From the IMG/VR virus record IMGVR_UViG_3300045988_085209, positions 1-13,387 of that record: 13,387 nucleotides of DNA; one strand, written 5' to 3'. The DNA comes from a virus. Made by a program: the position numbers and the translations under genes. Positions 1 through 13,387 of this stretch are shown here, one piece after another. The notes beneath the pieces were generated by a model that saw only the letters and a list, made by a program, of their open reading frames with translations, was not told where the DNA came from and searched no databases. Position 1 is the first letter of the stretch; every line of letters starts with the position of its first letter.

Positions 1-19
1 CTACCTAATAAGGCAAATG

Positions 20-41
20 TGTAAAGGTTTTCCCCTTTACA
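20..41. repeat. Near-terminal 8-bp inverted repeat TGTAAAGG-N6-CCTTTACA
   Basis: 20-27 TGTAAAGG pairs with 34-41 CCTTTACA. A further direct CTTTACA copy lies at 44-50. The element is mirrored in the right ITR at 13347-13368. Confidence 0.8.
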
Positions 42-66
42 TACTTTACACCTAACATTTGGTAAA

Positions 67-82
67 TTGGTTGGTCAACCAA
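67..82. repeat. 16-bp near-perfect palindrome TTGGTTG-GT-CAACCAA inside the ITR
   Basis: 67-73 TTGGTTG is the reverse complement of 76-82 CAACCAA, with a 2-nt centre. This is too tight for a hairpin, so it is more likely a dimeric protein-binding site. It is mirrored at 13306-13321. Confidence 0.7.
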
Positions 83-110
83 CTTACTTATGTCCGGCCC
101 AGATCACAGA

Positions 111-182
111 CCTGCATATAGCGCAGGAGCTATGAGCATATAACAAATTTGATATATAGCAAACCTGCTATAAGCATATAAC
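111..182. repeat. Iteron-like repeats inside the ITR
   Basis: AGCTATGAGCATATAAC (128-144) and TGCTATAAGCATATAAC (166-182) match at 15 of 17 positions, 38 bp apart. GCATATA occurs three times (114-120, 136-142, 174-180). A 5-bp inverted repeat joins CCTGC (111-115) and GCAGG (123-127). The block is mirrored in the right ITR at 13206-13277. Confidence 0.7.
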
Positions 183-193
183 GAAAGAAGTAT

Positions 194-222
194 TTTACAA
201 CAGCCATACATAATATTATAAT
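194..222 (+). promoter_or_regulatory. Inward-facing sigma-A/sigma-70-type promoter in the left ITR
   Basis: -35 TTTACA (194-199), a 17-nt spacer, then -10 TATAAT (217-222). It lies about 55 nt upstream of the first + strand ATG (279). The leader contains an AGGC-GAAA-GCCT hairpin (234-245) and the SD GGAGGG (268-273). Confidence 0.7.
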
Positions 223-278
223 AAAGATGTTCCAGGCGAAAGCCTAACCAATTACAGCCCCAGGGGCAGGAGGGTAAT

Positions 279-452
279 ATGAAAAATTATGATGTGAGAT
301 ACTGGATCAAGGCTAATAGGGCCGAAGTTGAATATTCCATGATTGTATTTGCGAAAGATGCGAAAGAGGCTTGCAGGATCTGCAAGGAACGAGTAAAAGA
401 AAACTGTGGTCGAAATGCATTCCGGCCTGTAGCGAAAAGAGCGGAGGTGTAA
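279..452 (+). CDS. Hypothetical small basic early protein, 57 aa (not in the ORF track)
   Basis: Hand translation: MKNYDVRYWIKANRAEVEYSMIVFAKDAKEACRICKERVKENCGRNAFRPVAKRAEV, with stop TAA at 450-452. The SD GGAGGG lies 5 nt upstream, inside the ITR. There are 14 K/R against 8 D/E, and a CxxC-x7-C pattern. Confidence 0.65.
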   Translation: MKNYDVRYWIKANRAEVEYSMIVFAKDAKEACRICKERVKENCGRNAFRPVAKRAEV

Positions 453-454
453 TC

Positions 455-613
455 ATGCCAGCGATTATAGCCGCAATGAAGAACGACATCCTTGATATTC
501 CGAACACTTTCTATTTTCCAACATGGAAAGCTGCGCTGTCTTTCTATAAGAAGTACGGTGCAAATCTGATTGTAGTGCGGAACGCAATACTTCCGGAAGA
601 TTTGGAGTGGTGA
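455..613 (+). CDS. Hypothetical early protein, 52 aa
   Basis: ATG 455 is in frame within ORF-track entry 371..613, which begins at a TTG with no SD. SD GGAGG (444-448) lies 6 nt upstream of ATG 455. Product: MPAIIAAMKNDILDIPNTFYFPTWKAALSFYKKYGANLIVVRNAILPEDLEW. Confidence 0.6.
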   Translation: MPAIIAAMKNDILDIPNTFYFPTWKAALSFYKKYGANLIVVRNAILPEDLEW

Positions 614-622
614 GGAGGTTGA

Positions 623-784
623 ATGATGGTTGAATGTGTAGATCGTAAAGCGCTGGAGAAAGCATTAACAATAGCAGCGGCCAGCGGGAAAGACAAAGAT
701 CGTCGAATATGGGCCAAGGCGATTTGTGTGCTGCATGATATGCCAACGATTTTAATTGACCCAGAAGATGGAGGAAAAGCATGA
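623..784 (+). CDS. Hypothetical early protein, 53 aa (not in the ORF track)
   Basis: SD GAGGAGG (612-618) is followed by ATGATG at 623/626, and either ATG could be the start. Product: MMVECVDRKALEKALTIAAASGKDKDRRIWAKAICVLHDMPTILIDPEDGGKA. The stop TGA (782-784) overlaps the next ATG as ATGA. Confidence 0.6.
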   Translation: MMVECVDRKALEKALTIAAASGKDKDRRIWAKAICVLHDMPTILIDPEDGGKA

Positions 785-951
785 AATACTCACTCATTTA
801 CCATGACAATTGGTCATCGCTCGTAATGGGGAAATATGACACTTACGGAGAAGCACTCCTTGCAATGCTGGAAGCTCGAAAGTGGCATGAAATGCACCAC
901 GGCTATAACATAGTCAGATTTGAAATTCGGGAGGATTGCTATTATGGCTAA
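781..951 (+). CDS. Hypothetical early protein, 56 aa (not in the ORF track)
   Basis: The ATGA overlap with the previous ORF suggests translational coupling, and SD GGAGG (770-774) lies 6 nt upstream. Product: MKYSLIYHDNWSSLVMGKYDTYGEALLAMLEARKWHEMHHGYNIVRFEIREDCYYG. Stop TAA is at 949-951. Confidence 0.6.
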   Translation: MKYSLIYHDNWSSLVMGKYDTYGEALLAMLEARKWHEMHHGYNIVRFEIREDCYYG

Positions 952-1588
952 ATTCTCGGTCGATAAGTTAATCGCAAAGTACGGTTTACAGGGTGGGCGC
1001 GAGGCGCTCACCCCTTACGCGCTTGAGAACACCGAGATTTCAAAGCAGGATCTCAAGAAACTATATACAGAACTGCGCGACATTGCCAACAAGCGCATCA
1101 AGAGAGCGCAGAAAGCCGGTTACGGCCAGAATCTTGTTATTCGGCAGGGCGCGAAAAAGATCCCGAAGATCTCGGAAATCCGCACTGATGCGGAGCTTAG
1201 ATATCGAATTGGGGAAACTGCAATGCTTTTGGAGAATCCGCTTTCGACTATTTCCGGAATCGAGCGTATCGAATCGAAAAAGCTCGCAACTCTTGCGAGG
1301 CACGGGTTCGATTTCGTAAATGAGGGGAATTTGCAGGATTTCGGGCGTTTTATGGAATGGGTGCGCGCCAACTATTCCGATATGCTTTATGATTCAGATT
1401 TGGTCGCCAAACTTTATAAAACTGTCACCAAAGGTGGATTTACAGTAAGGGCCCTTAAGCGGATGTTTGATGAATATATGGATAATCTGGACGCATTCAC
1501 TCAGGTTGTAGAAGAAAATCCGGGCCGCACTGCGGCTTGGTACAGAAAGCAGCTGAAAAAGCGTGGCGTGTGGGTTGAGGAGGATTAA
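944..1588 (+). CDS. Putative terminal protein (replication primer), 214 aa
   Basis: It lies immediately upstream of the protein-primed polymerase in the same operon, as in phi29 gene 3/gene 2. ATG 944 has SD GGGAGGA (929-935); the ORF-track start at 920 is a TTG without an SD. The N-terminal segment KKLYTELRDIANKRIKRAQKAGYGQNL resembles phi29 TP KAEYARLVKNTKAKIARTKKKYGVDL by eye. The priming residue cannot be assigned from sequence. Confidence 0.6.
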   Translation: MAKFSVDKLIAKYGLQGGREALTPYALENTEISKQDLKKLYTELRDIANKRIKRAQKAGYGQNLVIRQGAKKIPKISEIRTDAELRYRIGETAMLLENPLSTISGIERIESKKLATLARHGFDFVNEGNLQDFGRFMEWVRANYSDMLYDSDLVAKLYKTVTKGGFTVRALKRMFDEYMDNLDAFTQVVEENPGRTAAWYRKQLKKRGVWVEED

Positions 1589-1591
1589 GGC

Positions 1592-3589
1592 GTGATCATT
1601 AGGGCAGATGATTTTGACCATGAATATATGAAGCTAACCGGCCTGCGGCGCATGCAAAAGAAGCATCGGGGGAATCCTGGGACACGAGCAAGGCGCAGAT
1701 ATCGCGATGAGGTAACGGCTTTTGATATTGAAACCTCCACGATTCCGGGAACACAGCAAGCGGTCATGTATATCTGGCAATGGCAGATCGGGGATTTCAC
1801 TGTTATTGGCCGCACTTGGGAAGAATTCCAGGATCTTTGTTACCGGCTCAAAGCGCAGTGCAAAGAGGATCAGTATATTGTGGTGTATGTGCATAACCTA
1901 TCCTTTGAATTTCAGTTTTTGGCAGGCATCTATGAATTTCAGCCGGAAGAAGTATTCTGCATCGAAAGCCGGAAGATCCTCAAATGTGACATGTTCGGCT
2001 GTCTGGAATTCCGCTGCTCCTACCTGCACAGTAACATGTCATTGGATGAATTCACACGCAAAATGGGAGTGGAGCACGCAAAGCTGCACGATTTCGACTA
2101 CAATCAATTCAGAGGGCCTTGGACAGCTCTAACAGATGATGAACTGCAATACTGCATAAACGATGTGCAGGGCCTTGTAGAGGCCCTTAAAATCGAAATG
2201 AAGCATGACGGAGATAATTTGTATTCCATCCCTCTGACCTCCACCGGCTATGTGCGCAGGGACGCGAGAGCAGTTCTAAAGGGCGTGAAGCATTTCATAG
2301 TGCAGGATATCCTGCCGGATTATGAAGTGTTTGAGATGCTCCAGGAAGCATTCCGCGGGGGAAACACCCATGCAAACAGATATTATGCAGGGCTGATCCT
2401 GGAGAATGTGAAAAGCGCGGATCGCTCCAGCAGTTACCCAGATGTACAGGTAAATTGCAAATATCCCATGTCGCGCTGGTTTCGTTCCGGAAACATCACA
2501 ACAGACCAATTATTTGACCTCATAGACCGCAGAGGGCGCGCAGTGGTAATGCGTGTTGCTTTATTCAATGTGCGCTTACACGATGAATTTTGGGGGTCTC
2601 CGTACCTTTCTATAAGCAAGTGCCGGAATATCAAGAATCACGAGCCGGACAATGGACGCATCCTATCTGCTGACTACTTGGAAACTACCATTACAGATAT
2701 TGATTTGAAGATCATCACTGACGAATACGATTTCGACAGCATGACCATTATCGACAGCGCGCACAGCAGATACGGCTATCTGCCGCGGAAATTTGTGGAG
2801 CTGGTCAACAAGTATTATCGGCTGAAAACAGAGCTGAAAGGCTCCGAGGATCTCTTTGACCAGCTGCTATACATGAAAAGCAAAAACAAGCTCAATTCGT
2901 TGTATGGCATGAGTGCCCAAAACCCCATCAAACCGGAAACGCAATTCAAGCAGGGCGAATTCAGCATCTTAGAGGAGGACTACAAAGAGAAGCTAGAAGC
3001 GCAAAACAAAAAAGCATTCTTTAACTATGCCTGGGGGGTGTGGTGTACGGCCTGGGCACGGCTGCGGCTGGAAGAGGGAATCCGGCTGGCCGGAAGCCGC
3101 TTTGTTTACGCTGATACGGATAGCGTGAAATATCTTGGCGAAATAGATTGGAGCGAATATAACGCCATCCGGGAAGCGCAGAGCAAAGCCCATGGGGCCT
3201 ATGCCATCGACAAAAAGGGAAAGGCCCATTACATGGGTGTCTTTGAGTATGAGGGCGAATATGCGAAATTCTCCACGCTGGGAGCCAAAAAATACTGCTG
3301 TGAGGACGCGGAGGGCAATTTGCAGATAACCATTGCCGGAGTGGGTAAAAAGGCCGGTGCGACCGAATTACGCCGGGCTGGCGGCATTTCCAGATTCAAG
3401 CCGGGATTTATCTTCCGGGAGGGTGGCGGATTAGATGCCGTTTATAACGATGATCCGGAGATAAAGGAAGTAACGATAGACGGCCACAGGCTGGAGATCA
3501 CCCGCAATGTGTGTCTTGTGCAGGGCGAATACACGCTGGGCCTTGCAGGGGATTATGAACGGCTATTGGATAGACTTGCGATAGAGTAA
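1592..3589 (+). CDS. Protein-primed family-B DNA polymerase (phi29 gp2-like), 665 aa
   Basis: Exo I is FDIETST, Exo II is HNLSFEF and Exo III is YCINDVQGL. Motif A is DRSSSYP (Dx2SLYP type), motif B is KNKLNSLYG (Kx3NSxYG), followed by TAWAR. Motif C is YADTDS and KxY is KKY. The start is GTG 1592 with SD GGAGG (1579-1583) 8 nt upstream. The next in-frame ATG (1628) has no SD. Confidence 0.97.
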   Translation: MIIRADDFDHEYMKLTGLRRMQKKHRGNPGTRARRRYRDEVTAFDIETSTIPGTQQAVMYIWQWQIGDFTVIGRTWEEFQDLCYRLKAQCKEDQYIVVYVHNLSFEFQFLAGIYEFQPEEVFCIESRKILKCDMFGCLEFRCSYLHSNMSLDEFTRKMGVEHAKLHDFDYNQFRGPWTALTDDELQYCINDVQGLVEALKIEMKHDGDNLYSIPLTSTGYVRRDARAVLKGVKHFIVQDILPDYEVFEMLQEAFRGGNTHANRYYAGLILENVKSADRSSSYPDVQVNCKYPMSRWFRSGNITTDQLFDLIDRRGRAVVMRVALFNVRLHDEFWGSPYLSISKCRNIKNHEPDNGRILSADYLETTITDIDLKIITDEYDFDSMTIIDSAHSRYGYLPRKFVELVNKYYRLKTELKGSEDLFDQLLYMKSKNKLNSLYGMSAQNPIKPETQFKQGEFSILEEDYKEKLEAQNKKAFFNYAWGVWCTAWARLRLEEGIRLAGSRFVYADTDSVKYLGEIDWSEYNAIREAQSKAHGAYAIDKKGKAHYMGVFEYEGEYAKFSTLGAKKYCCEDAEGNLQITIAGVGKKAGATELRRAGGISRFKPGFIFREGGGLDAVYNDDPEIKEVTIDGHRLEITRNVCLVQGEYTLGLAGDYERLLDRLAIE

Positions 3590-3590
3590 A

Positions 3591-3620
3591 ATAAGCCCTC
3601 CCCGAATGGGGAGGGCTTAT
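3591..3620. terminator. Bidirectional rho-independent terminator at the convergence point of the two arms
   Basis: A perfect 13-bp stem joins ATAAGCCCTCCCC and GGGGAGGGCTTAT around the 4-nt loop GAAT. The GC-rich core is followed by TTATTTT-type runs on both strands. It sits between the polymerase stop (3587-3589) and the stop of the - strand gene (3622-3624). Confidence 0.85.
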
Positions 3621-3621
3621 T

Positions 3622-4032
3622 TTAGGTAAACGAAATATCGTTAAACCGAATATAGGATTTTGAATACAGTCTTACCGTTGCATTATCAATTTGCGCTTTT
3701 GCCGGTATATCAAGATTAAATATGTCCGATGGGTTGACAGTGTTTTTTCCTACCGAATAGAGCTGATTCCCAGAACTATCATAGATGTAAAAATAAAATT
3801 CTGCTGCCGAAGAACCAATCTTGGTTTCATCCAATTTCGCTTTAGTTCGGCCTTTTAACGGAACCCCCTGAAATTCACATTGTGAAAATGAGTACATTAC
3901 AAGCCCGTCAGCAGCTAAGTTGACAGTTCCGCTTATTTTAACATATTTATAATCCGTTTTGGCGTTCGCAAAAAGATGTATTTCTTTTGGAGCAGCTTTT
4001 CCCATATACATATACGCAGTATTAACGATCAT
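3622..4032 (-). CDS. Hypothetical beta-rich protein, 136 aa; possible carbohydrate-binding or receptor-binding accessory module
   Basis: SD GAGGAGG lies 7 nt upstream of ATG 4032. This is the last gene of the late operon, directly after a fibre gene. G+C is much lower than in its neighbours. The alternating hydrophobic pattern and the C-terminal YIRFNDISFT resemble beta-sandwich CBM-type modules, but this is a weak by-eye impression only. Confidence 0.7.
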   Translation of the reverse strand: MIVNTAYMYMGKAAPKEIHLFANAKTDYKYVKISGTVNLAADGLVMYSFSQCEFQGVPLKGRTKAKLDETKIGSSAAEFYFYIYDSSGNQLYSVGKNTVNPSDIFNLDIPAKAQIDNATVRLYSKSYIRFNDISFT

Positions 4033-4044
4033 CTTGACACCTCC

Positions 4045-4761
4045 TCACCCCAGGTTGATGATGTTCATGTAGACACTCTGCTCCGGAATGCTGGTGGCGT
4101 AGAATGTCACCTGATTCTGCGCCTGCGCGGTCGCTCTGATCTGCGCTGCCACAGCAGCATCAAAGCTGTTAGGGCTGGGGGAGATCACAAGATTGGTATT
4201 CGCGTTCACCTGCGCCACAGTCGCGATCTGCTGGTAGCCTTCCCCGGAGACAGTCCAGCCGGCCACGGTCAGCTGCACACTGGAGCCGGTCGATTTATTG
4301 GCCTTGGTTTCCAGCTGGGCCGCGGTGGCGAAATAGTCCGCGCTATGGCCATCCAGGGTGTCCGCGTCAATAGGGCCGGAATCCGCAGCGCCTGCGACAA
4401 AGACGGTCAGCAGGGTATCAACCAGGATGCCCAGCACGCTGGATCCGATGATCCATGCGCCATCCGGGGGGGTTGTCCCGCCGGGGGTAAGTACGGAGAC
4501 CTGCGTTCCGTCAATGGTCATGGTGTCCCCGGATTTCCACTTGCCGGTGGCCTTAAAGGTGATAACCTTATTATCCGGCTGCTGTCTGGTGAGGGCGTGT
4601 ACAGTGCCGCTAACCACTTCGGTGGCGTTTCCGACACCGAGCACCTGCACCTGCTTCAGAGCGGTATCAACGCGCTGCATGTTCACATTCTCAACGGAAA
4701 GGGGATTAAAAAGGTCGCTGCCCTCATATTCAATGAGGTTGAAATTGGTGGTATTAGTCAT
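4045..4761 (-). CDS. Tail fibre / receptor-binding protein, 238 aa
   Basis: SD AAGGAGG lies upstream. The N-terminus TNFNLIEYEGSDLFNP...NVNMQRVDTAL matches the widespread Firmicutes-phage fibre N-terminal motif (xNYxLxKPExxD...NxNMDxID). The DADTLDGHSADYFAT motif is typical of phage fibres. The C-terminal head is beta-rich. Confidence 0.75.
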   Translation of the reverse strand: MTNTTNFNLIEYEGSDLFNPLSVENVNMQRVDTALKQVQVLGVGNATEVVSGTVHALTRQQPDNKVITFKATGKWKSGDTMTIDGTQVSVLTPGGTTPPDGAWIIGSSVLGILVDTLLTVFVAGAADSGPIDADTLDGHSADYFATAAQLETKANKSTGSSVQLTVAGWTVSGEGYQQIATVAQVNANTNLVISPSPNSFDAAVAAQIRATAQAQNQVTFYATSIPEQSVYMNIINLG

Positions 4762-4775
4762 GTTTCACTACCTCC

Positions 4776-4994
4776 TTAAAACTGTTTCAGCCGGGAAATG
4801 ATCTCCGGCGCTTTTTGATTGCTGGTGGTGATAATGAATGTCCAGCGCGCGTTTCCGCTCTCCTTGGCCGCTTCATAGGTGAATTGGTTTTGCTCCAGGA
4901 AGTTTATCACCTGGGAAGCGTTTCCGCCATTTTCGGTGGCCCACAGGAGATTTGCTTCCTGCGCACCCCATTCGTCAAAGGTGATGGGATTCAT
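4776..4994 (-). CDS. Hypothetical protein, 72 aa, between the two fibre genes
   Basis: ORF-track entry with SD AAGGAGG 8 nt upstream of ATG 4994. No recognisable motif. From its position it may be a fibre assembly or adaptor protein. Confidence 0.6.
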   Translation of the reverse strand: MNPITFDEWGAQEANLLWATENGGNASQVINFLEQNQFTYEAAKESGNARWTFIITTSNQKAPEIISRLKQF

Positions 4995-5007
4995 TTAATT
5001 TACCTCC

Positions 5008-5592
5008 TTAGTTGGGATAGAAGATCTGATAGCCATTAACCACAATGTCGGTGCAGGTGGCCTTATAGCCCACAACGGTGGTAACGGTGCGCTGTGCATT
5101 CCCGATCTGTGCCACACTGATTGCGCCGGTGAGATGGAACGCGGACAGATAATCGAACATCTCCTGCACTGTCACATACTTGCCGGTAAACAGGTTCAGC
5201 ACCTTTAGATCAATCAGACCCTTGGAGATTTCCTCCATCAGAAATTCATTATTCTGTGCGATCTGCGCATTGGTGTAACCTCTCGCGGCCACCAAATTCG
5301 CGTCAATTTCCGCATCCTGCTGTTTCAGCTGCTCCTGGAATCCAGACAGTGCGCCATTGACCACATTTTGAAAATCTCGAATCGCGGTTTCAACAGATTG
5401 TTTCAGTTCCAGATTAGCTTGGTTGGAGCGTTCCGCTTCGGCTGCGACCTTTTCATCCGTATAGGTTTTGGCCGCGTCCAGAACTTCAGTGCTCCACTTG
5501 TCCACCGCTTCCGAAACCCTCTTGACCTCTTTTAACACCCAGTCAAGGTTGAGATCATGGAAATTGGTATAGGGGAACTGTTCAAATGCCAT
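5008..5592 (-). CDS. Putative tail fibre/appendage protein with central coiled coil, 194 aa
   Basis: SD GGAGGTG lies 5 nt upstream of ATG 5592. The N-terminal FPYTNFHDLNLDWVLKEV motif recurs at the N-termini of Firmicutes prophage fibre proteins (from memory). Residues ~25-110 are heptad-like and helical. The position corresponds to phi29 gene 12. Confidence 0.55.
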   Translation of the reverse strand: MAFEQFPYTNFHDLNLDWVLKEVKRVSEAVDKWSTEVLDAAKTYTDEKVAAEAERSNQANLELKQSVETAIRDFQNVVNGALSGFQEQLKQQDAEIDANLVAARGYTNAQIAQNNEFLMEEISKGLIDLKVLNLFTGKYVTVQEMFDYLSAFHLTGAISVAQIGNAQRTVTTVVGYKATCTDIVVNGYQIFYPN

Positions 5593-5605
5593 TGTATCAC
5601 CTCCA

Positions 5606-8442: not shown

Positions 8443-8461
8443 GCCCGCACCTCCTTATTGG

Positions 8462-9673
8462 TTAGTCAAGCAGCAGTACAACTGCCTTTTCGGTCAGGTC
8501 AGACCAGCTGCGCTGCGTCTCGTGGATCCACATGGTGGTATAACCGCCGCGGGCATTGAAAGGCGCAGGATTGGCCCACTGCTGCATGGTGGTGTATCCG
8601 AGAGCTTCCTCATCAAAGATGATGCCGAAGATTCCGGCCTGCTCCACAGCGGTATCAGGAGTAACCAGAGCGCCATCAGTGCCGATGTAGACCGGCTTCA
8701 CGCTGATGCTGTCGGGGGTTTCAATGCTCTGCCAGAAGTTTACCGTTTCATTATCCGCAAAGCGCAGGAAGTTATCGTGGTAGGTGTCCGCGATGGCCAT
8801 GGTCTCGGTCTGGAATCTTGCGGGCGCATAGAGATAGACTTTCTGACGATCCAGCGGAGTGTGGCGCAGAATATGCATTTCATTTACCACGGTCTGGAAC
8901 ATCTCGCTGCGCTCGGTCATCATGGCCGAAATGGAAGAAATCCGCGCGAACACCCACTGCATGAACGGTTTGAAATTCGCAGGCTGATAGACGCTTTGGG
9001 CAGTGAGATCGGCAAGACCGGTAAGGGTCTTATACTCGGTCAGCAGATGCACAACGCGGCCCTCCTGGGCCTCCTTGCAGATTGCCCCGATGTGGTTTGC
9101 AATGGTTGCGCGGGCGATGTTTTCACGCACCTGCTCCAGCTTGTCGGTGACATTCTGCGTTACCATTGTAATGAAGCGGCTGAACTCGTCCGGAGTAGTA
9201 AACGCGCAATCCAGCTGATCCTTATAGATGGTGTAATAGTCCTGATAGACATTTGCGCCATAGAAATTGGTTTCGAGGATCTTAGGCTTACGCTGGATCT
9301 GCTGATCAACAGCCAGACCGTCACCGTTAGGAGGGGTCTTGCCTGTGGTATATGCGACCGGGTACTGATAACGGTCGTCATTTACCAAATCGCTGTCAGC
9401 GATGGACAGCTTGCGAACGCGATTGCCATAGGTGATCTGATCCACCATGATGCCGTTAAATTTCCGGCGATAAGGACGGACAGAAAAAATGGTGCGGGAA
9501 AGTACCTGGGAAATGGCTTTCATCAGAGGATCATAGCCAGTTTTAAGCGCGGTCTGTGCGGAAGTGATAAAGCTCGCGCTATCTACAGCTGCGATAGTAG
9601 ATTTCCCGGTAGCCTGGCTCTGAATCTCGTTCAGAATCGCCGATGCCTGGGTAAAAGTAAGATCATTGGCCAT
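8462..9673 (-). CDS. Major capsid protein (phi29 gp8-like, HK97 fold expected), 403 aa
   Basis: SD AAGGAGG lies upstream, and a TAATG overlap links it to the scaffold gene. The C-terminal NARGGYTTMWIHETQRSWSDLTEKAVVL parallels phi29 gp8 [28 protein letters not shown]. Size and position after the scaffold fit a capsid protein. Complete avoidance of TTA/CTA/TCA codons suggests high expression. Confidence 0.85.
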   Translation of the reverse strand: MANDLTFTQASAILNEIQSQATGKSTIAAVDSASFITSAQTALKTGYDPLMKAISQVLSRTIFSVRPYRRKFNGIMVDQITYGNRVRKLSIADSDLVNDDRYQYPVAYTTGKTPPNGDGLAVDQQIQRKPKILETNFYGANVYQDYYTIYKDQLDCAFTTPDEFSRFITMVTQNVTDKLEQVRENIARATIANHIGAICKEAQEGRVVHLLTEYKTLTGLADLTAQSVYQPANFKPFMQWVFARISSISAMMTERSEMFQTVVNEMHILRHTPLDRQKVYLYAPARFQTETMAIADTYHDNFLRFADNETVNFWQSIETPDSISVKPVYIGTDGALVTPDTAVEQAGIFGIIFDEEALGYTTMQQWANPAPFNARGGYTTMWIHETQRSWSDLTEKAVVLLLD

Positions 9674-10029
9674 TAGGATTTAACCTCCTTAAAAGAAAAT
9701 GGTGTGCCGCTGGTTTTCTGCGGCGGATTGATAATGGATGCCAGGATATCATCAACAGATTCCTGGGGCGGCTGCTGTGCCTGCTGCAGGTTTGCCTTTA
9801 CTATCGCATCGCTCAGCTTTGCAAACTCTGCGGACAGCATTTGAGAGAGATCCTCCAGGCCCTGCGGCTTAGGCGGTGCCGGGGGATCGGCCTGCGCGGG
9901 TGGTGCAGGCGGTGCTGAGGGATCTGCCTGCGCGGGTGGTGTGGGCGGTGCTGCAGGGGCCTGCATTGCCGCGATCTGATCTCTTGTGTAGCCAGCTTTC
10001 ACCAGCAAAATGATATCCTCATAGTTCAT
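9673..10029 (-). CDS. Putative scaffolding protein, 118 aa, with a Pro/Ala-rich repeat linker
   Basis: SD AAGGAGGG lies 8 nt upstream of ATG 10029. It is a small, acidic, helical protein immediately upstream of the capsid gene and translationally coupled to it, in the position of phi29 gene 7. Confidence 0.55.
   Translation of the reverse strand: MNYEDIILLVKAGYTRDQIAAMQAPAAPPTPPAQADPSAPPAPPAQADPPAPPKPQGLEDLSQMLSAEFAKLSDAIVKANLQQAQQPPQESVDDILASIINPPQKTSGTPFSFKEVKS
9871..9957. repeat. 36-bp imperfect tandem repeat, about 2.4 copies, within the scaffold gene
   Basis: Unit 1 (9871-9906) and unit 2 (9907-9942) match at 32 of 36 positions, and a partial third unit spans 9943-9957. On the - strand it encodes APPTPPAQADPS / APPAPPAQADPP / APPKP. 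Confidence 0.85.
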
Positions 10030-10732
10030 TGATTTTGCCCTCCTTAATAATTACCGGATAGCCAATGGCGGACAGCTCATCGGCCATCTTCTGCGCGTTT
10101 TCTTTGGAGCGGAAAGCGCCAACCTGGACGCGATAAATAACATCGGTCTTTTCGGCCAGCTTTTCCGCTACTCTTGATCTGAATTTGTCCATGTTTTCCC
10201 CGAAACCAAAGAAATAGGATTCCGGATCCCCATGGTTTGAAGCATACCCTGCCGCAGCCGCTTCCTTGTGGGAGGTGATCTTGTCTACCGAAAACCCATA
10301 CTTGCGGCAAAGATCCGCGACCAGCTCAACCAGATAAGCATACCCGGTATGGAAATACTGTGCGTCCGTCATATCGCTCTCGCAGAATTCAATCTGAATA
10401 TATGCCGTAGGTGGATAATTGTAGGATCCTTTCTTTCCGGCTCCGCAGCCCCAACAGGCAATATTAAGCGGCAGAACTTCGCAAGTGGCCATGTGTCCTG
10501 CTTTATCCAGGCCAACAAAAAGATGTGGGCTTTTCTTAATTCCGGGTTGGTTCCAATGATTCCCGTACTTGTTTTCACCCAGGATATCCGGAGCGTCTAC
10601 ATAGCGCCGCAAATTGGGATTTGCTGCCCCAGTGCTATGTACCAAAATTCCGACAGGGTTAATGGGAATCTGATTTGCAGGAATGCTTAGTATTTCGTGC
10701 TTGATGTGGTGAGTGATATAGTAGTTTATCAT
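10019..10732 (-). CDS. Endolysin: N-acetylmuramoyl-L-alanine amidase domain with a C-terminal SPOR domain, 237 aa
   Basis: An ATGA overlap links it to the holin gene. The N-terminal part has amidase-type motifs (ILVHSTGAANP, ITSHKEAAAAGYASNHGDPE). The C-terminal IYRVQVGAFRSKENAQKMADELSAIGYPVIIKEG is a textbook SPOR motif (YRVQVGAF...A..L...G). Confidence 0.8.
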   Translation of the reverse strand: MINYYITHHIKHEILSIPANQIPINPVGILVHSTGAANPNLRRYVDAPDILGENKYGNHWNQPGIKKSPHLFVGLDKAGHMATCEVLPLNIACWGCGAGKKGSYNYPPTAYIQIEFCESDMTDAQYFHTGYAYLVELVADLCRKYGFSVDKITSHKEAAAAGYASNHGDPESYFFGFGENMDKFRSRVAEKLAEKTDVIYRVQVGAFRSKENAQKMADELSAIGYPVIIKEGKINEL

Positions 10733-10917
10733 TTCGGTTCCATCCTCTCCACCAGCTTCGTCATAACAACAGTATTGTTGTTAATGGCCTCTACGAATTT
10801 TTCAGATTCCAGCTTGTGATCTTCACGCTCTTTGTTAAGCATCCAGAACATGGCCACCAGACACGCAACAGGAACTCCCAGATTGCTGACGATCTGAACG
10901 ATTGCGGTTACATCCAT
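10729..10917 (-). CDS. Holin, BhlA/UviB-like, 62 aa
   Basis: SD AAGGAGG lies 8 nt upstream of ATG 10917. It has a single N-terminal TM segment (IVQIVSNLGVPVACLVAMFWML) followed by KEREDHKLESEKF and a charged helical tail, like B. subtilis BhlA (...FCWLLFYVMKTSKERESKLYNQ...). It lies immediately upstream of the endolysin. Confidence 0.8.
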   Translation of the reverse strand: MDVTAIVQIVSNLGVPVACLVAMFWMLNKEREDHKLESEKFVEAINNNTVVMTKLVERMEPK

Positions 10918-10940
10918 GAATACACCTCCTTAAATTAAGA

Positions 10941-11017
10941 ATAGAGACCCCATTCAGTCCGCTGCACGGCGGAATGGGCAGGCTTCCGGCCTTGTGCATA
11001 GCCCTTGGGGTCTCTAT
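10941..11017 (-). ncRNA. Structured ~77-nt RNA element (three-way junction) followed by a U-rich tract; leader, terminator or small RNA
   Basis: P1 is a 12-bp stem (10941-10952 with 11006-11017). Hairpin A pairs 10976-10983 with 10989-10992 plus 11001-11004 (8 bp), with a 5-nt loop and an 8-nt bulge (10993-11000). Hairpin B pairs 10959-10962 with 10969-10972 and has flanking pairs 10953/54 with 10974/73. The hairpin B loop TGCAC (10963-10967) is complementary to the bulge GTGCA (10994-10998). On the - strand the element is followed by UCUUAAUUU and then the holin SD. Confidence 0.55.
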
Positions 11018-11021
11018 GTTC

Positions 11022-11049
11022 ATTATAGCGCGATTATTTTCTTTGTCAA
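11022..11049 (-). promoter_or_regulatory. Exact-consensus sigma-A/sigma-70 promoter embedded in the 3' end of the ATPase gene
   Basis: On the - strand, TTGACA is at 11049..11044 and TATAAT at 11027..11022, with a 16-nt spacer. The TATAAT contains the ATPase stop codon TAA (11025..11023). The expected start, about 7 nt downstream, falls at the first bases of stem P1 (~11017-11014). Confidence 0.65.
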
Positions 11050-12039
11050 GTATTCTTTGACAAGATAATCCTCGCAGTATAATTCCCCACTTAGATACTT
11101 CCGCAGGATCCAGCCATATTTAAGGCGAAAGCGCTTAATATCAATATCGTCTCCGGTGTAGGTTTCCGGACTACCGGATGTGTGAAATGTGGCGTACAAT
11201 GTGCCATCGCTCTTGTGAGAATAAATACAAACTTCGCCAACTTTCACAATAGAAATATACTCCCGGAGCGGCTTGGATTGAATGTGCGCTGCATCATCCT
11301 CGCGGAAAGCATTATTTAACGCCATCTCATTAAAGCGGCTATCCTTTGCTGTAGCCTTGTAAAGCGCCGTATTTGCTTTCTGTGCACTTATGTGGCTGTC
11401 ACTTAGAATGTATATCCCAATACCGCGATCACGAAGCAGAGACATATTCTTTCCGGTCTGCTGCATCCTCATGGCCCTGCTGACAAGGCCCAATTCCATA
11501 AAGATAGGATTCCCCAGGTCGTTGGCATTTGCCAGGCACAGCGTTTGGATCGGCCTTTGGCCCTGCAATTCGCGGTTACGGTTCATTGTCTCATAAGCGT
11601 TCAGGAACGCGGCTCCCTCGTTCTTGATAGGCCGCTCATGCCGTTCCGGTATGAATTCATCAAAAATCCACAGCTGCACATCTGATGCGTCAAAGCCGCG
11701 CAGATTCGACATTGTGGAAAGGGCCGAAGCATAGCCAATTGGATCGCCGCTATCATCCGCGTAAAAGCCGGTATTATACTTGGTTATCTTCGCAGCGGTA
11801 ATATCTACACCCAGATCCCGGTTAATAGGCTTGAATGGGCTGAACTCATTCTTTGTGACAATATCTATCTGCGCCTGGGTGCGGCGCGTCAGCATGAACT
11901 TGATGTTATCCTCGACCACAACTTTCAGTGCCCCATAGGTCTTACCAGTTCCGCGTCCGCCCACCAGGAAGTTGAACGGCAGGCCCTGTGCAAGAATCCA
12001 TCGAATATCTACATAGCCGTTGGGCAAATATAAGCCCAT
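11023..12039 (-). CDS. DNA packaging (encapsidation) ATPase, phi29 gp16-like, 338 aa
   Basis: Walker A FNFLVGGRGTGKTYG matches phi29 gp16 LNFVIGARGIGKSY. Walker B LWIFDEFIPE matches TIVFDEFI. CLANAND matches CLSNA. The size is similar (phi29 gp16 is 332 aa). SD AGGAGGTG lies upstream of ATG 12039. Confidence 0.9.
   Translation of the reverse strand: MGLYLPNGYVDIRWILAQGLPFNFLVGGRGTGKTYGALKVVVEDNIKFMLTRRTQAQIDIVTKNEFSPFKPINRDLGVDITAAKITKYNTGFYADDSGDPIGYASALSTMSNLRGFDASDVQLWIFDEFIPERHERPIKNEGAAFLNAYETMNRNRELQGQRPIQTLCLANANDLGNPIFMELGLVSRAMRMQQTGKNMSLLRDRGIGIYILSDSHISAQKANTALYKATAKDSRFNEMALNNAFREDDAAHIQSKPLREYISIVKVGEVCIYSHKSDGTLYATFHTSGSPETYTGDDIDIKRFRLKYGWILRKYLSGELYCEDYLVKEYLTKKIIAL
11043..11063. 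promoter_or_regulatory. Operator-like palindrome overlapping the -35 box
   Basis: TTGTCAA (11043-11049) and TTGACAA (11057-11063) are exact 7-bp inverted repeats separated by 7 nt. One half-site contains the -35 hexamer. I found no other copy in the window. Confidence 0.4.
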
Positions 12040-12059
12040 TAAAACACCTCCTAAAGAGA

Positions 12060-12079
12060 TGGGAGCCGTTAGGCTCCCA
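12060..12079 (-). terminator. Possible intrinsic attenuator/terminator hairpin between the SSB-like and ATPase genes
   Basis: An 8-bp GC-rich stem (TGGGAGCC / GGCTCCCA) closes the tetraloop GTTA. On the - strand it is followed by UCUCUUU, a weak U-tract that runs straight into the ATPase SD. Confidence 0.35.
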
Positions 12080-12086
12080 ATGTAAA

Positions 12087-12464
12087 TTAGAACGAAGTAT
12101 CATTGTCGCTGTCAGGATCGGCCCATTCCTGGACTACAATAACAGGTGTCTTGATCTCATCTCCAGCTTTGGTCTGGAAGATCTCGAAGGTCAGGAATGC
12201 TTTTGCGATATCGATCTCGAAATTCATGCCGCCATCGGCTTCCGGGGCATCACCTTTCATAAAGCGGACATTGAAATAGAGGTTCGACCATTCACCATCG
12301 TCATTCTTGATGCCGATGGATGTGGAGAATTTTAGGAACGATGCTGGCTTCCCATTCTTATTGTAGTTCACCTCCTGCGCGTAAACGCGCATCCTGCCGG
12401 TCAAATCGCTGCTCCAGTATTTGACCTTCTCGCTCTGCTTCTTACTTTGTTTCTTAACTGCCAT
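12087..12464 (-). CDS. Putative single-stranded DNA-binding protein (OB fold) with an acidic C-terminal tail, 125 aa
   Basis: SD GGAGG lies 7 nt upstream. The beta-rich pattern FLKFSTSIGIKNDDGEWSNLYFNVRF...PVIVVQEW resembles SSB OB folds. The C-terminus DPDSDNDTSF recalls the acidic tip ending in F of bacterial SSBs (DDDIPF). Its size is similar to phi29 p5 (124 aa), and it lies in the early region. Confidence 0.55.
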   Translation of the reverse strand: MAVKKQSKKQSEKVKYWSSDLTGRMRVYAQEVNYNKNGKPASFLKFSTSIGIKNDDGEWSNLYFNVRFMKGDAPEADGGMNFEIDIAKAFLTFEIFQTKAGDEIKTPVIVVQEWADPDSDNDTSF

Positions 12465-12483
12465 GGTTAATACCTCCTATTAT

Positions 12484-12615
12484 TTAGGCCGGAAGGGCCT
12501 TATTGGCTTCATCGTACAGGCCCAGCAGATGAATATATAACCGGGCCTTGTCATAGTCTGCGGCCTTGAGGGCCTCGCAGATTTGATATTGAATGCGCCT
12601 GCGTTCTTTAGTCAT
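12484..12615 (-). CDS. Hypothetical small helical protein, 43 aa (not in the ORF track)
   Basis: An ATGA overlap links it to the upstream gene stop, and SD GGAGG lies 7 nt upstream. Product: MTKERRRIQYQICEALKAADYDKARLYIHLLGLYDEANKALPA. Stop TAA is at 12486..12484. Confidence 0.5.
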   Translation of the reverse strand: MTKERRRIQYQICEALKAADYDKARLYIHLLGLYDEANKALPA

Positions 12616-12941
12616 GTTTCTACCTCCTGCATCCAAAATTCGCGACAACAATCTACACACTTTATTACGGGTTCTTTACAGTCGCCATCACCGTCTCTGT
12701 GTGCGGCAGAAATATACCTCGGACAAAGCCGCAGCACCCCGGAATCATCAACAAGTGACTCCGGATAGTGCTCCATAAACACGCTTTGCCGCGTCTTGCG
12801 CGGGTGCGCAGCAGCCCAGTCCTCGACTTCTTTTACCACATTCTCCGCGCTAACAGTCATGCTGAATAAATTATACTTTGGGTATTTCCCTGTAACATCA
12901 AACATTCGTCTGCGCTCCTCGACAAACTTTACAGCATCCAT
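12612..12941 (-). CDS. Hypothetical Cys-rich (possibly zinc-binding) early protein, 109 aa
   Basis: The ORF-track entry starts at TTG 12944. I prefer ATG 12941, which overlaps the upstream stop as TGATG and has GAGGAGG (12955..12949) upstream. The C-terminal part carries the Cys cluster CPRYISAAHRDGDGDCKEPVIKCVDCCREFW. Confidence 0.7.
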   Translation of the reverse strand: MDAVKFVEERRRMFDVTGKYPKYNLFSMTVSAENVVKEVEDWAAAHPRKTRQSVFMEHYPESLVDDSGVLRLCPRYISAAHRDGDGDCKEPVIKCVDCCREFWMQEVET

Positions 12942-13108
12942 CAATCCACCTCCTCGATCATTCCAGATAGGATGATTGCATCATCGTTCAGCTCGAAGAA
13001 CATCTTAGAAAGCTGTGCGGGCATCTCCCGGCCGTCATTAAGAGTTTGGATCAGATCTCTGGTGCTGCGGATCGCTGCGCGGATTACTTTAAGTTCAGTG
13101 TTACTCAT
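12941..13108 (-). CDS. Hypothetical small acidic helical early protein, 55 aa (not in the ORF track)
   Basis: This is the first gene of the right arm. ATG 13108 lies 6 nt after the ITR-borne SD. Product: MSNTELKVIRAAIRSTRDLIQTLNDGREMPAQLSKMFFELNDDAIILSGMIEEVD. Stop TGA is at 12943..12941. Confidence 0.6.
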   Translation of the reverse strand: MSNTELKVIRAAIRSTRDLIQTLNDGREMPAQLSKMFFELNDDAIILSGMIEEVD

Positions 13109-13110
13109 AT

Positions 13111-13387
13111 TTACCCTCCTGCCCCTGGGGCTGTAATTGGTTAGGCTTTCGCCTGGAACATCTTTATTATAATATTATGTATGGCTGTTGTAAAATACTT
13201 CTTTCGTTATATGCTTATAGCAGGTTTGCTATATATCAAATTTGTTATATGCTCATAGCTCCTGCGCTATATGCAGGTCTGTGATCTGGGCCGGACATAA
13301 GTAAGTTGGTTGACCAACCAATTTACCAAATGTTAGGTGTAAAGTATGTAAAGGGGAAAACCTTTACACATTTGCCTTATTAGGTAG
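13111..13387. repeat. Right inverted terminal repeat (277 bp)
   Basis: Perfect reverse complement of 1-277. Left position x corresponds to 13388-x. Confidence 0.98.
13166..13194 (-). promoter_or_regulatory. Inward-facing promoter in the right ITR (identical copy)
   Basis: Mirror image of 194-222. On the - strand, TTTACA is at 13194..13189 and TATAAT at 13171..13166. It drives the - strand operon that starts at ATG 13108. Confidence 0.7.

Follow-up and report, generated by a model that had tools for sequence, protein, structure and literature searches.

Next to the packaging ATPase gene of the 13,387-nt stretch analysed here (the window), we identified a small structured RNA of 77 nt that appears to be undescribed, and whose predicted fold resembles the packaging RNA (pRNA) known so far only from Bacillus phages. 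This RNA, found in the window genome and its relatives, is the new element, whereas the genome type is already known. We put at roughly 85% the probability that the window is real and gives, essentially in full, the linear dsDNA genome of a mammalian-gut phage, short-tailed, virulent and uncultured, that belongs to the phi29-like supergroup. The genome is 13.4 kb long, with 22 tightly packed genes between inverted terminal repeats (ITRs) covering 97.7% of the non-ITR sequence (Table 1). The genome itself is ordinary, being one more member of a populous and already surveyed group, and the phi29 type is common in public metagenomes.

Table 1. Features of the window, with positions, strand and supporting observations.
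Feature	Position	Strand	Basis or remark
Left ITR	1..277	.	presumed replication origin; regulator sites, promoter, 5' UTR and Shine-Dalgarno of first gene
8-bp hairpin near terminus	20..41	+	mirrored at 13347-13368; retained in L012 and L026
Four ATATARC heptamers in two 32-nt repeats	116..182	+	upstream of ITR promoter; mirrored at 13206-13272
Inward-facing sigma-70-type promoter inside ITR, TTTACA-17-TATAAT	194..222	+	11/12 consensus; mirror 13194-13166 on - strand
Four small ORFs, variable early cassette	279-452, 455-613, 623-784, 781-951 (span 279..951)	+	
Terminal-protein candidate, 214 aa, all-helical	944..1588	+	gene order; 3 nt upstream of pPolB
Protein-primed family-B DNA polymerase (pPolB), 665 aa	1592..3589	+	DNA_pol_B_2 E 9.8e-12; PHROG 1907 E 1.2e-66
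Perfect 17-bp hairpin between convergent operons	3587..3624	.	inverted repeat I10
Hypervariable protein, 136 aa	3622..4032	-	~30% identity in relatives whose adjoining genes are >90% identical
238-aa and 72-aa proteins	4045..4994	-	position; weak PHROG 23587 match
194-aa protein	5008..5592	-	N-terminal part matches 434-815 aa proteins at tail-fibre position of relatives (L002, L008, L011)
Lower collar, phi29 gp11 analogue, 186 aa	5606..6166	-	family profile vs PDB 6qz9 E 6e-4; synteny
Portal / upper collar (gp10), 309 aa	6132..7061	-	PF05352 E 3e-23, 83 bits; BLASTP vs phi29 gp10 E 4e-19
Tail knob, gp9 analogue, 462 aa	7054..8442	-	fold: Foldseek 5fb5 (phi29 gp9) E 1.2e-13
Major capsid protein, phi29 type, 403 aa	8462..9673	-	PF25622 E 4.8e-17, 62.8 bits
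Scaffold candidate, 118 aa	9673..10029	-	position only: directly upstream of capsid gene
Endolysin, Amidase_2 + SPOR	10019-10732	-	
Holin	10729-10917	-	
77-nt three-way-junction RNA, pRNA-like topology	10941..11017	-	just after ATPase gene
Perfect consensus promoter, TTGACA-16-TATAAT	11022..11049	-	start of RNA and late operon
gp16-type packaging ATPase, 338 aa	11023..12039	-	PF05894 E 7e-15, 55.6 bits; PHROG 2150 E 9e-32
Right-end early genes, 125, 43, 109 and 55 aa	12087..13108	-	ORFs
Right ITR	13111..13387	.	100% complementary to 1-277 over 277 nt; both contig ends reached

Using RNA covariance models, we found one full-length copy of the RNA per genome, in late-gene orientation, in 75 of 91 sources; 3 further sources were recovered with filters off, giving about 78 related genomes altogether. 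In the alignment, 95.9% of cells were paired versus 56% in shuffles, double changes occurred at 22 of the 23 pairs, and the covariation score was 0.98 compared with at most 0.19 for slid controls. RNAalifold independently gave the same fold, with 23/23 pairs compensated. The complementarity between bulge and D loop averaged 4.56 nt in cognate versus 2.73 nt in non-cognate combinations, across 28 different sequence pairs. No Rfam family matched the RNA, and the pRNA model RF00044 gave no score. The preliminary description had credited the window with the full phi29 packaging core, but without a pRNA; the Rfam pRNA model is unmatched, though a pRNA-like RNA is present. On our analysis, this RNA would be the best candidate for the adaptor supplied in phi29 by pRNA.

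We give an even chance to a reading in which the RNA is no packaging RNA but works in cis as a 5' leader of the late operon, whether by stabilising the mRNA, by attenuation or antitermination, or as a regulator binding site; the bulge-loop pairing would then be a tertiary contact inside one molecule. The RNA does lie at the start of late-gene transcription: at 71 of 74 related loci it is preceded by a promoter whose -10 element ends at most 11 nt, and mostly 3-8 nt, before it, and a ribosome-binding site and start codon follow within 4-55 nt. The three best promoter matches in the window are all intergenic and correctly oriented. A universal terminator is absent from the RNA, a U-tract following the closing helix in some lineages only, and in two relatives whose ATPase gene lies elsewhere (L002 and L010) the RNA is still upstream of the late genes; that it keeps to the late operon and not to the ATPase gene fits a cis-acting leader. 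Since the C and D arms are near-equal (4 bp and 5 bp), the bulge-loop pairing could also form within one molecule and is sterically conceivable there. Against a leader, however, the RNA carries the full set of pRNA features, namely 5' and 3' ends that pair with each other, a three-way junction, a 7-9-nt 5'-side bulge on one arm, a hairpin on the other and a covarying bulge-loop complementarity, and we know of no leader that combines them. The CGGAA loop hardly varies, which suggests that a conserved protein recognises it, and these phages encode a gp16-type ATPase, whose phi29 counterpart needs pRNA in order to dock on the prohead (PMC5066667).

That the genome is real and essentially complete follows from the agreement of independent assembly ends, the unequal repeats of a pig-gut relative and a ceiling on contig size. 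As the preliminary description stated, the ITRs are perfect over 277 bp to the first and last base, and identity drops abruptly inside the border, where 16 of the next 100 positions match. Exactly identical arms with symmetric ends are also what an assembler yields when it passes through a single repeat node two times, and for this reason they do not count as independent evidence; in that case the ITRs would be an artefact, and the molecule really circular, incomplete or a fragment of something larger, for instance a prophage. We regard this as very improbable, since contigs from other samples and assemblers terminate 0-5 nt from one common base. The MEGAHIT contig L017, from another sample and another assembler, starts at the same base as the right ITR, and two diverged relatives, L012 from pig gut and L026, extend 2-5 nt past the first base of the window, which makes the true terminal nucleotides uncertain by a few bases. 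An ENA contig, L001, equals window positions 278-13110 exactly, bar 2 SNPs, and thus a second assembly breaks precisely at both repeat borders. The ITR copies of L012 are mutually only 90% identical and were therefore assembled separately; MT835998 has a partial ITR. Among the well over a thousand related contigs seen, the longest is about 15 kb (about 14.9). The two arms sit at the termini in inverted orientation with 12.8 kb of unique sequence between them and are not a fold-back of adjacent sequence, and the contrary signs listed in the preliminary description (a circular junction, a contig past the ends, a fold-back pattern) were absent from the assembled contigs. We consider it slightly less probable still that the window is a linear plasmid, phage-plasmid or other pPolB-carrying mobile element. 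Although pPolB and ITRs are known in linear plasmids too, and some phi29-like sequences are phage-plasmids (PMC11476376), this genome is filled by a complete virion and lysis module, and the family scans of the window detected no genes for partition, a toxin-antitoxin system, an integrase or a repressor. Placement of the phage in an established family such as Guelinviridae, which would make it taxonomically nothing new, is unlikely. NCBI lists Amedibacillus phage AD70P2 under unclassified Guelinviridae, and AD70P2 and AD70P3, the closest cultured phages by gene content, share with the window the polymerase, lower collar, portal, tail knob, capsid, holin and ATPase. However, the proteins are only 21-37% identical to those of AD70P2, no GenBank phage resembles the window at the nucleotide level, and a 2024 survey separates the Amedibacillus phages from Clostridium Guelinviridae in capsid and terminase clusters (PMC11476376).

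The window phage is unclassified and uncultured, but it is neither a new kind of virus nor the smallest of its kind. Its placement at the small extreme for tailed phages was overstated, given Vibrio phage K58 g2 (10.4 kb), Astrithrvirus (11.6 kb) and AD70P2 (12.3 kb). The suggestion of an undescribed lineage is borne out in its lack of classification and culture, and megablast against GenBank phages found nothing, hence no near-identical hit to a classified genus. Against that suggestion, near-identical contigs number in the hundreds, its 90%-identity protein clusters have 497-650 members, GenBank TPA genomes included, IMG/VR contigs reach 85-93% nucleotide identity, and a 2024 survey (PMC11476376) already covers the phi29-like gut group of 11-15 kb. 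Four of these contigs (L003-L006), with 97-98% polymerase identity and the same ITR architecture, belong to the same genus or species group. IMG/VR UViG 3300045988_066173 is among the closest uncultured gut genomes, TPA "Caudoviricetes sp." proteins (DAH39820.1, DAK50777.1) fall into the same 90% clusters, and MT835998 (Mexico, 14.0 kb), at 56% identity in the polymerase and 49% in the capsid, represents a sister lineage. All of these uncultured relatives are unclassified and carry automatic annotation only. Of the copies seen, the window is the most complete. The host is probably a Clostridia (Oscillospiraceae-like) bacterium, as the closest endolysin homologues in genomes are from Oscillospiraceae and Clostridia MAGs (47-55% identity), an assignment that is weak because endolysins move between phages.

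The left-ITR architecture is kept in L012, L026, L005, L006 and L003. In relatives, the -10 hexamer of the ITR promoter is invariant and the last base of the -35 differs in one of eight aligned sequences. ATATARC occurs 12 times in the window, 8 of them inside the ITRs, versus a whole-window expectation of 3.5 (0/200 shuffles reached 12). The 32-nt repeats bearing these candidate binding sites for a regulator or end-binding protein are direct-repeat families D1 and D6. In L012, a single 360-aa gene replaces the four small early ORFs. The terminal-protein candidate gene lies directly upstream of pPolB in the window and 10 related loci, and its family (815 clusters at 50% identity) has invariant Y41 and S151. 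It is homologous to the protein encoded at that position in Astrithrvirus (hhalign 97% probability) and AD70P2 (56% probability). The earlier proposal of an adjacent terminal protein is a matter of synteny, the 214-aa protein being a candidate by gene order only; no sequence or fold similarity to known terminal proteins, that of phi29 included, was detected; similarity to the phi29 protein is likewise undetectable outside Salasmaviridae (PMC11476376). In pPolB, ExoI, ExoIII, motifs A, B and C and KxY are invariant relative to phi29, with E in ExoII replacing phi29 D66, and identity to any cultured phage compared is at most 37%. The hairpin at its 3' end, with weak Thr_leader-like matches on both strands, is likely a bidirectional terminator.

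The earlier reading of a complete phi29-like genome, bounded by ITRs and equipped with pPolB and the morphogenesis core of phi29, is supported, fold or profile methods being needed for the gp9 and gp11 analogues. The latter matched the phi29 proximal tail tube connector (6qz9) at 77% hhalign probability. The tail knob model (AF2, pLDDT 80; low confidence in a Gly/Ala-rich loop at residues 336-388) also matched phage C1 gp12 (4eo2, E 2e-10), and BLASTP of the ATPase against phi29 gp16 gave E 2.5e-17. The scaffold candidate, 114 to 131 aa in relatives, contains a Pro/Ala-rich 36-nt tandem repeat (9871-9942, family D3). By position, the 238-aa and 72-aa proteins are probable tail fibre or appendage parts; the 194-aa protein also has a coiled-coil-like match, and the hypervariable protein is a candidate receptor-binding tip. 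The four right-end early proteins had no family or PDB match, and an acidic C-terminal tail suggests that the 125-aa protein may be an SSB.

Each ITR is probably a replication origin, with initiation at both ends and the 214-aa protein serving as covalent primer for pPolB. Within each ITR there are also an inward promoter, a 5' UTR and a ribosome-binding site, the same at both ends, and the repeat stops just short of the first start codon, which gives two convergent units meeting at the hairpin. The left unit contains small genes, the terminal-protein candidate and the polymerase. The right comprises small early genes and the ATPase, followed by the perfect-consensus promoter, whose transcript begins with the 77-nt RNA and runs on through the lysis genes (holin, then endolysin) and those for scaffold, capsid, tail knob, portal, lower collar and fibres. 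DNA would be packaged by the gp16-type ATPase through the gp10-type portal.

Among small phi29-like genomes, Astrithrvirus (Salmonella phage astrithr), DU_PP_III, Phanie and Vibrio K58 g2 resemble the window in a pPolB of 33-36% identity and a homologue of the terminal-protein candidate upstream of it, but infect Gram-negative hosts, arrange their genes differently and have a short ITR of at least 18 bp; the RNA models found no match in them. AD70P2 and AD70P3 share the size class, a perfect ITR, the core genes and the homologous protein upstream of the polymerase. They differ in protein sequence (21-37% identity), ITR length (55 bp), GC content (27% versus 49%) and in having nearly all genes on one strand. 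An RNA of the same topology could be folded by hand in their 123-nt gap after the ATPase gene; the covariance models did not reach it, and a bridging match in MT836587 has its bulge and loop motif in common.

Like phi29 (Bacillus; Salasmaviridae, Picovirinae), the window is linear, with ITRs, a pPolB with every catalytic motif, a small helical protein gene directly upstream of it, and genes for the gp16 ATPase, capsid, tail knob, portal and lower collar. Both lack a small terminase, and in both the transcription units converge on a bidirectional terminator, a likely one in the window. The shared gene order runs scaffold (assigned here from position alone), capsid, tail knob, portal, lower collar. 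In contrast, it measures 13.4 rather than 19.3 kb with an ITR of 277 instead of 6 bp, its polymerase, portal and ATPase are 23-28% identical to those of phi29, and only profile or fold comparison detects its capsid, tail knob and lower collar. The terminal-protein candidate is unrelated to its phi29 counterpart by sequence and fold, there is no head fibre, no family match to a gp13-type tail hydrolase was detected, several small fibre proteins stand against an 854-aa appendage, and ATPase and lysis genes precede the structural genes. The phi29 pRNA is a 174-nt RNA at the left end, and RF00044 pRNAs (117-174 nt) are separate early genes with their own terminator; the 77-nt RNA lies at the late promoter, with a closing helix of 11-12 bp lacking the pRNA bulges and without domain II. 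Both kinds of RNA occur in phages encoding a gp10 portal and gp16 ATPase, and both have their 5' and 3' ends paired in a closing helix, a three-way junction, one arm with a 5'-side bulge (9 nt in the window and in phi29, 7-10 nt in relatives) and then a short hairpin, a hairpin as the other arm, and a covarying complementarity between bulge and hairpin loop.

The preliminary description had read the window as a complete, ITR-bounded, phi29-like genome, and this interpretation holds, with the hallmark genes all present and contig ends from independent assemblies in agreement. The ITRs themselves were borne out: the two 277-bp arms are 100% complementary, extend to both contig ends, and stop abruptly, matching at only 16 of the next 100 positions past the border. 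The window is itself a JGI/IMG contig. A 12,833-nt ENA contig from another assembly (L001) equals window positions 278-13110 with two SNPs and breaks precisely at both ITR borders, and a MEGAHIT contig from a third sample (L017) has the same first base as the window. ITRs of the window's design, ending 2-5 nt outside its first base, were found in a 13,519-nt relative from pig gut (L012) and in contig OKRW01003485. The ITR copies of L012 share only 90% identity with each other and are therefore not the assembler's product of a single node. A partial ITR is present in MT835998, from a sister lineage, and the longest contig among relatives in all searches was about 14.9 kb. Based on these independent observations, the genome is linear, bounded by ITRs and complete but for a few terminal bases at most; it has the linear, ITR-flanked form associated with phi29-like replication. 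In the window itself, the perfect match of the two arms may still be an assembly product. An exact search of IMG/VR with the first 35 nt gave no match, and the conserved ITR pattern was matched once in metagenome contigs (OKRW01003485) and not at all in IMG/VR.

Alignment of the ITRs of four lineages resolved the arm into the elements listed in the table. The ATATARC heptamer has 12 matches in the window, eight of them within the ITRs, versus 3.5 expected window-wide, and by analogy these might be candidate sites for a regulator or for an end-binding protein like phi29 p6. As the ITR stops one to two bases short of the start codons of two different first genes, it is a combined end element and expression cassette. 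The right end of L003, one of the IMG/VR contigs closest to the window, holds at 12665-12975 an inverted copy of its left end (window 139-452) through gene 279-452; the ITR of L003 is therefore longer and takes in a copy of this gene, so ITR borders shift between close relatives. ITRs elsewhere measure 55 bp in Amedibacillus phage AD70P2 and at least 18 bp in astrithr.

Between the ITRs lie 22 genes covering 97.7% of the unique sequence. The four small ORFs, the terminal protein (TP) candidate and the polymerase (pPolB) are on the + strand and all other genes on the - strand, the two sets converging on a perfect 17-bp hairpin. All six phi29-like hallmarks (p2, p8, p9, p10, p11 and p16; PMC11476376) were found. 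Family scans supported the polymerase, portal, capsid and packaging ATPase named in the preliminary description (table), and no scan of the window matched a small terminase. Aligned with phi29, the polymerase has invariant ExoI, ExoIII, motifs A, B and C, and KxY, whereas its ExoII reads NLSFE, with Glu at residue 106 in place of the phi29 metal ligand Asp66, as is also the case in AD70P2, MT835998 and L012. The tail knob had no sequence-family match; its AF2 model (pLDDT 80) matched phi29 gp9 (5fb5, E 1.2e-13) and phage C1 gp12 (4eo2, E 2e-10). For the lower collar, the evidence is weak but specific: the top PDB match of its family profile is phi29 gp11 (6qz9, E 6e-4), hhalign gave 77% probability and the gene is syntenic, with the protein shortened to 186 aa compared with 293 aa in phi29 gp11. 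No tRNA genes were found in the window.

Features of the window and positions of the RNA in related sequences
Feature	Position	Strand	Characteristics
ITR arms	1-277 / 13111-13387
Conserved terminal stretch of ITR			about 60 nt, with an 8-bp hairpin at 20-41
Variable stretch of ITR			inward of the conserved terminal stretch
Two 32-nt repeats	116-182 (mirror 13206-13272)		four ATATARC heptamers, starts 116, 138, 154, 176; upstream of ITR promoter
ITR promoter	194-222		TTTACA-17-TATAAT; -10 invariant, -35 nearly invariant among lineages
Innermost ITR parts			GGC-GAAA-GCC hairpin, then GGAGG ribosome-binding site
Four small ORFs	279-951	+
TP candidate	944-1588	+	214 aa
pPolB (p2)	1592-3589	+	665 aa; PF03175 DNA_pol_B_2 44.9 bits (cut-off 25.8), E 9.8e-12; PHROG 1907 E 1.2e-66
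Convergence hairpin	3587-3624		perfect, 17 bp
136-aa protein	3622-4032	-
Tail knob (p9)	7054-8442	-	462 aa
Scaffold candidate	9673-10029	-	tandem duplication at 9871-9942
Major capsid protein (p8)		-	PF25622 Phi29_MCP 62.8 bits (cut-off 27), E 4.8e-17, profile positions 2-321 of 323
Portal / upper collar (p10)		-	PF05352 Phage_connector 83.1 bits (cut-off 25.6), E 3e-23; BLASTP phi29 gp10 E 4e-19
Endolysin		-	Amidase_2 + SPOR
Holin		-	PHROG holin family
Three-way-junction RNA	10941-11017	-	77 nt
Closing helix of RNA			11-12 bp; 5' and 3' ends of RNA
Arm 1 of RNA			4 bp, 7-9-nt bulge on 5' side, 4-bp hairpin with nearly invariant CGGAA loop
Arm 2 of RNA			5-bp hairpin
Promoter before RNA	11049-11022	-	TTGACA-16-TATAAT
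gp16-type packaging ATPase (p16)		-	PF05894 Podovirus_Gp16 55.6 bits (cut-off 25), E 7e-15; BLASTP phi29 gp16 E 2.5e-17
Terminator-like hairpin	12060-12079	-	between 125-aa gene and ATPase gene
RNA copies in related sequences	L007 5606-5679; L009 4785-4861; L008 5161-5235; L002 1047-1123
RNA copies in related sequences	L010 5764-5840; L025 7944-8019; L109 8564-8637	-
RNA copies in related sequences			most of L029-L105
RNA candidate in AD70P2	~6384-6506	-	123-nt gap after ATPase gene

Several genes have features of their own. Residues 336-388 of the tail knob form a Gly/Ala-rich hydrophobic segment of low model confidence. In phi29 gp9 a long loop is thought to insert into the membrane, and the segment may be its counterpart. 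Identity of the 136-aa protein drops to about 30% in L012 and the close contigs L003 and L005, compared with more than 90% for neighbouring genes, a pattern suggestive of a receptor-binding, host-range module. In L012, one 360-aa gene (273-1355) replaces the four small left-end ORFs, which on this comparison would constitute a swappable early cassette beside the ITR. The scaffold candidate, 114 to 131 aa long among close relatives, contains a 36-nt tandem duplication (89% identity) encoding a Pro/Ala-rich repeat. The two differences from L001 lie at positions 8698 and 10147, and in the L001 gene calls the capsid gene falls into two products, of 61 aa and 325 aa, at about position 8698; this suggests that the change there introduces a stop codon, in line with either a defective variant or a sequencing error in that assembly. 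At the right end, the 125-aa protein had no PDB or family match, and its acidic C-terminus raises the idea of an SSB. The terminator-like hairpin next to its gene may mark the boundary between an early right-end unit and the ATPase gene.

The 214-aa protein belongs to a family of 815 clusters at 50% identity in which Tyr41 and Ser151 are invariant, and its model is all-helical (pLDDT 90.8). It had no match in Pfam, PHROGs, NCBIfam, PDB sequences or the phi29 gp3 profile, and Foldseek found no PDB fold match, with BFVD giving only uncharacterised small-podophage proteins. As similarity to the phi29 TP is undetectable outside Salasmaviridae, even with HHpred (PMC11476376), these negatives carry no weight against the assignment. 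All ten related loci examined have a homologue immediately upstream of the polymerase, and the protein is homologous to the equivalent gene products of astrithr (hhalign 97%, E 5e-11) and AD70P2 (56% probability). From this gene order we infer a putative terminal protein. Virus sp. ctxAI8 (13,382 bp, 49.8% GC; PMC11476376) was considered as the window's virus and rejected: its protein at the TP position is only 22% identical by fold alignment, and ctxAI8 is therefore a separate lineage.

A megablast of the whole window against GenBank phages returned no hit. By tblastn of the polymerase, the best hits were MT835998 from human faeces in Mexico (14.0 kb, 56%), Amedibacillus phages AD70P2 and AD70P3 (12.3 and 12.2 kb, 37%), Clostridium phage HM2 (17.5 kb, 36%), Astrithrvirus and allies (10.4-11.9 kb, 33-36%) and Bacillus phi29-type phages (about 25%), and capsid-protein searches gave the same relationships. 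The sizes of Astrithrvirus and its allies make the earlier placement of this genome at the small extreme an overstatement. Compared with phi29 (Salasmaviridae), the polymerase is 23%, the portal 25% and the ATPase 28% identical, and other proteins were undetectable by BLASTP; the closeness in proteome or nucleotide sequence to phi29-type Bacillus phages that is expected within Salasmaviridae was not found. In a Guelinviridae comparison that is pairwise only, AD70P2 proteins were 21-37% identical to those of the window and the HM2 polymerase 36%.

Four IMG/VR contigs share 85-93% nucleotide and 97-98% polymerase identity with the window, at least 439 IMG/VR contigs have a related ATPase, and the protein clusters at 90% identity have 497 members for the polymerase, 650 for the capsid and 613 for the ATPase, with the TPA entries DAH39820.1 and DAK50777.1 among them. 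A 2024 survey had already covered 2,115 phi29-related genomes, many of them human-gut genomes of 12-15 kb (PMC11476376). The suggestion of an undescribed lineage was thus right in that the lineage is unclassified and uncultured, and went too far in that it is heavily sampled and surveyed, being neither a new kind of phage nor the smallest; the genome is a new uncultured member of a known, populous group. The nearest endolysin homologues in genomes are from Oscillospiraceae or Clostridia (47-55% identity), a weak hint that the host may belong there. Taken by itself, the genome contributes little beyond being a complete reference copy of a common unclassified gut lineage, with a clear ITR anatomy comprising presumed origin, promoter and ribosome-binding site.

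The best promoter match of the window falls in the 105 nt that separate the ATPase and holin genes; promoter-like sites number 15 window-wide versus 17.7 expected by chance, and only the three best, all intergenic, were used. Directly after this promoter, a stretch is 100% conserved in relatives while its flanks are 83-98% identical, and the closing helix of the RNA encoded here shows compensating changes and compensating 1-nt insertions among relatives. Distant relatives with different sequence have the same layout of promoter, closing helix, CGGAA-loop hairpin and second hairpin. Since a MAFFT alignment of the diverged copies was out of register, the first covariance model was built from three near-identical sequences of the window's genus and a hand-written structure, and then iterated. 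The first model gave 22 significant full-length hits and the second 75 hits in 91 sources, with three further hits when filters were off. In the results of the second model each genome has a single copy, encoded on the same strand as the ATPase and usually 20-100 nt past the ATPase stop codon.

In the 66 distinct sequences of the covariation set, whose alignment was fitted to the model, 95.9% of cells were paired versus 56.3% in shuffles, 580 cells were compensated versus 157, and changes on both sides occurred in 22 of the 23 pairs. The covariation score was 0.98, compared with at most 0.19 with slid partners. RNAalifold alone gave the same three-way junction; all 23 pairs were compensated and the covariation term was -11.0. 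In 57 of 66 sequences, a stretch of 4-6 nt in the bulge of arm 1 complements the loop of the second hairpin, a level reached by only 17% of non-cognate pairs, and 28 different sequence pairs are used (e.g. UGCAC/GUGCA, GGUCA/UGACC, GAAACA/UGUUUC, AACCAA/UUGGUU). At 71 of 74 distinct loci, a promoter with nine or more of the 12 consensus positions (fourteen of these promoters being perfect) has its -10 ending no more than 11 nt, and mostly 3-8 nt, before the first paired base, indicating that the RNA forms the 5' end of a primary transcript. That the structured RNA exists is beyond reasonable doubt. It also appears to be undescribed. It is absent from Rfam 15: RF00044, which in a control recovered the phi29 pRNA at 145 bits, had no hit in the whole window at E ≤ 1 and none in a 151-nt region at E ≤ 10, and no other Rfam family scored it.

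Two other accounts of this locus were discarded. A 62-aa ORF over the RNA (10835-11023) overlaps the holin gene in a different frame, and two compensating 1-nt insertions in the close contigs L005 and L006 keep the helix and would shift the frame. A plain terminator of the ATPase operon, made of closing helix and U-tract, is contradicted by the position of the promoter, which follows the ATPase stop codon and precedes the helix, as well as by the many lineages without a U-tract.

As for function, we tentatively propose, at a probability of about 0.4, that the RNA and its counterparts in about 78 related genomes are a miniature homologue of the phi29 prohead RNA (pRNA), which by analogy would form a ring through intermolecular bulge-loop pairing and dock the gp16-type ATPase on the portal. 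Consistent with this proposal, the 5' and 3' ends form a closing helix, the three-way junction bears a D hairpin and a C-E arm that is bulged on its 5' side, and the CE bulge and D loop are complementary with covariation. The main rival explanation is a cis-acting leader of the late operon, and the same pairing bears on it, since arms 1 and 2 are similar in length and the bulge and loop could therefore pair inside one molecule. A leader is also favoured by related contigs L002 and L010, where the ATPase gene is elsewhere and the RNA is still upstream of late genes, and the restriction of the U-tract after the closing helix to some lineages argues against a simple pRNA.

In the cultured phage AD70P2, the gap after the ATPase gene hand-folds into the topology of the window RNA (UGAGGG / GUUGC / bulge AUAUCCAA / hairpin / AGUA-GGGA-UACU / CCCUCA), with a loop GGAU complementary to bulge AUCC; the covariance models did not detect this candidate. 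MT836587, a significant model hit, has the bulge/loop motif UAUCC / GGGA in common with it. The set of pRNA-like RNAs probably includes that of AD70P2.

With a covariation-backed RNA of pRNA topology present across a large diverged clade, ATPase docking in other phi29-like phages becomes testable. The literature searched treats pRNA as a feature of phi29 and its Bacillus-phage relatives only (PMC5066667, PMC11476376), and the examples newly named by a 2025 Infernal-based search, seeded with the Bacillus-phage pRNAs of phi29, GA1 and DLc1, were Bacillus-type (PMC12670572). If the pRNA reading is true, RNA-dependent packaging would not be peculiar to Bacillus phages, and would be ancestral, or at the least widespread, among phi29-like phages of gut anaerobes; if confirmed, the RNA would also offer a self-assembling scaffold of natural origin and much smaller size, together with dozens of orthogonal loop pairs found in nature. 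The window RNA does not reach the gathering score of RF00044. In that family's consensus, the phi29 pRNA consists of an A helix, a C helix, a 9-nt CE bulge, an E hairpin, a short junction and a D hairpin, which the window RNA matches point by point, and its covarying bulge/D-loop pairing corresponds to the pairing that joins phi29 pRNA into a ring (PMC5066667, PMC12670572).
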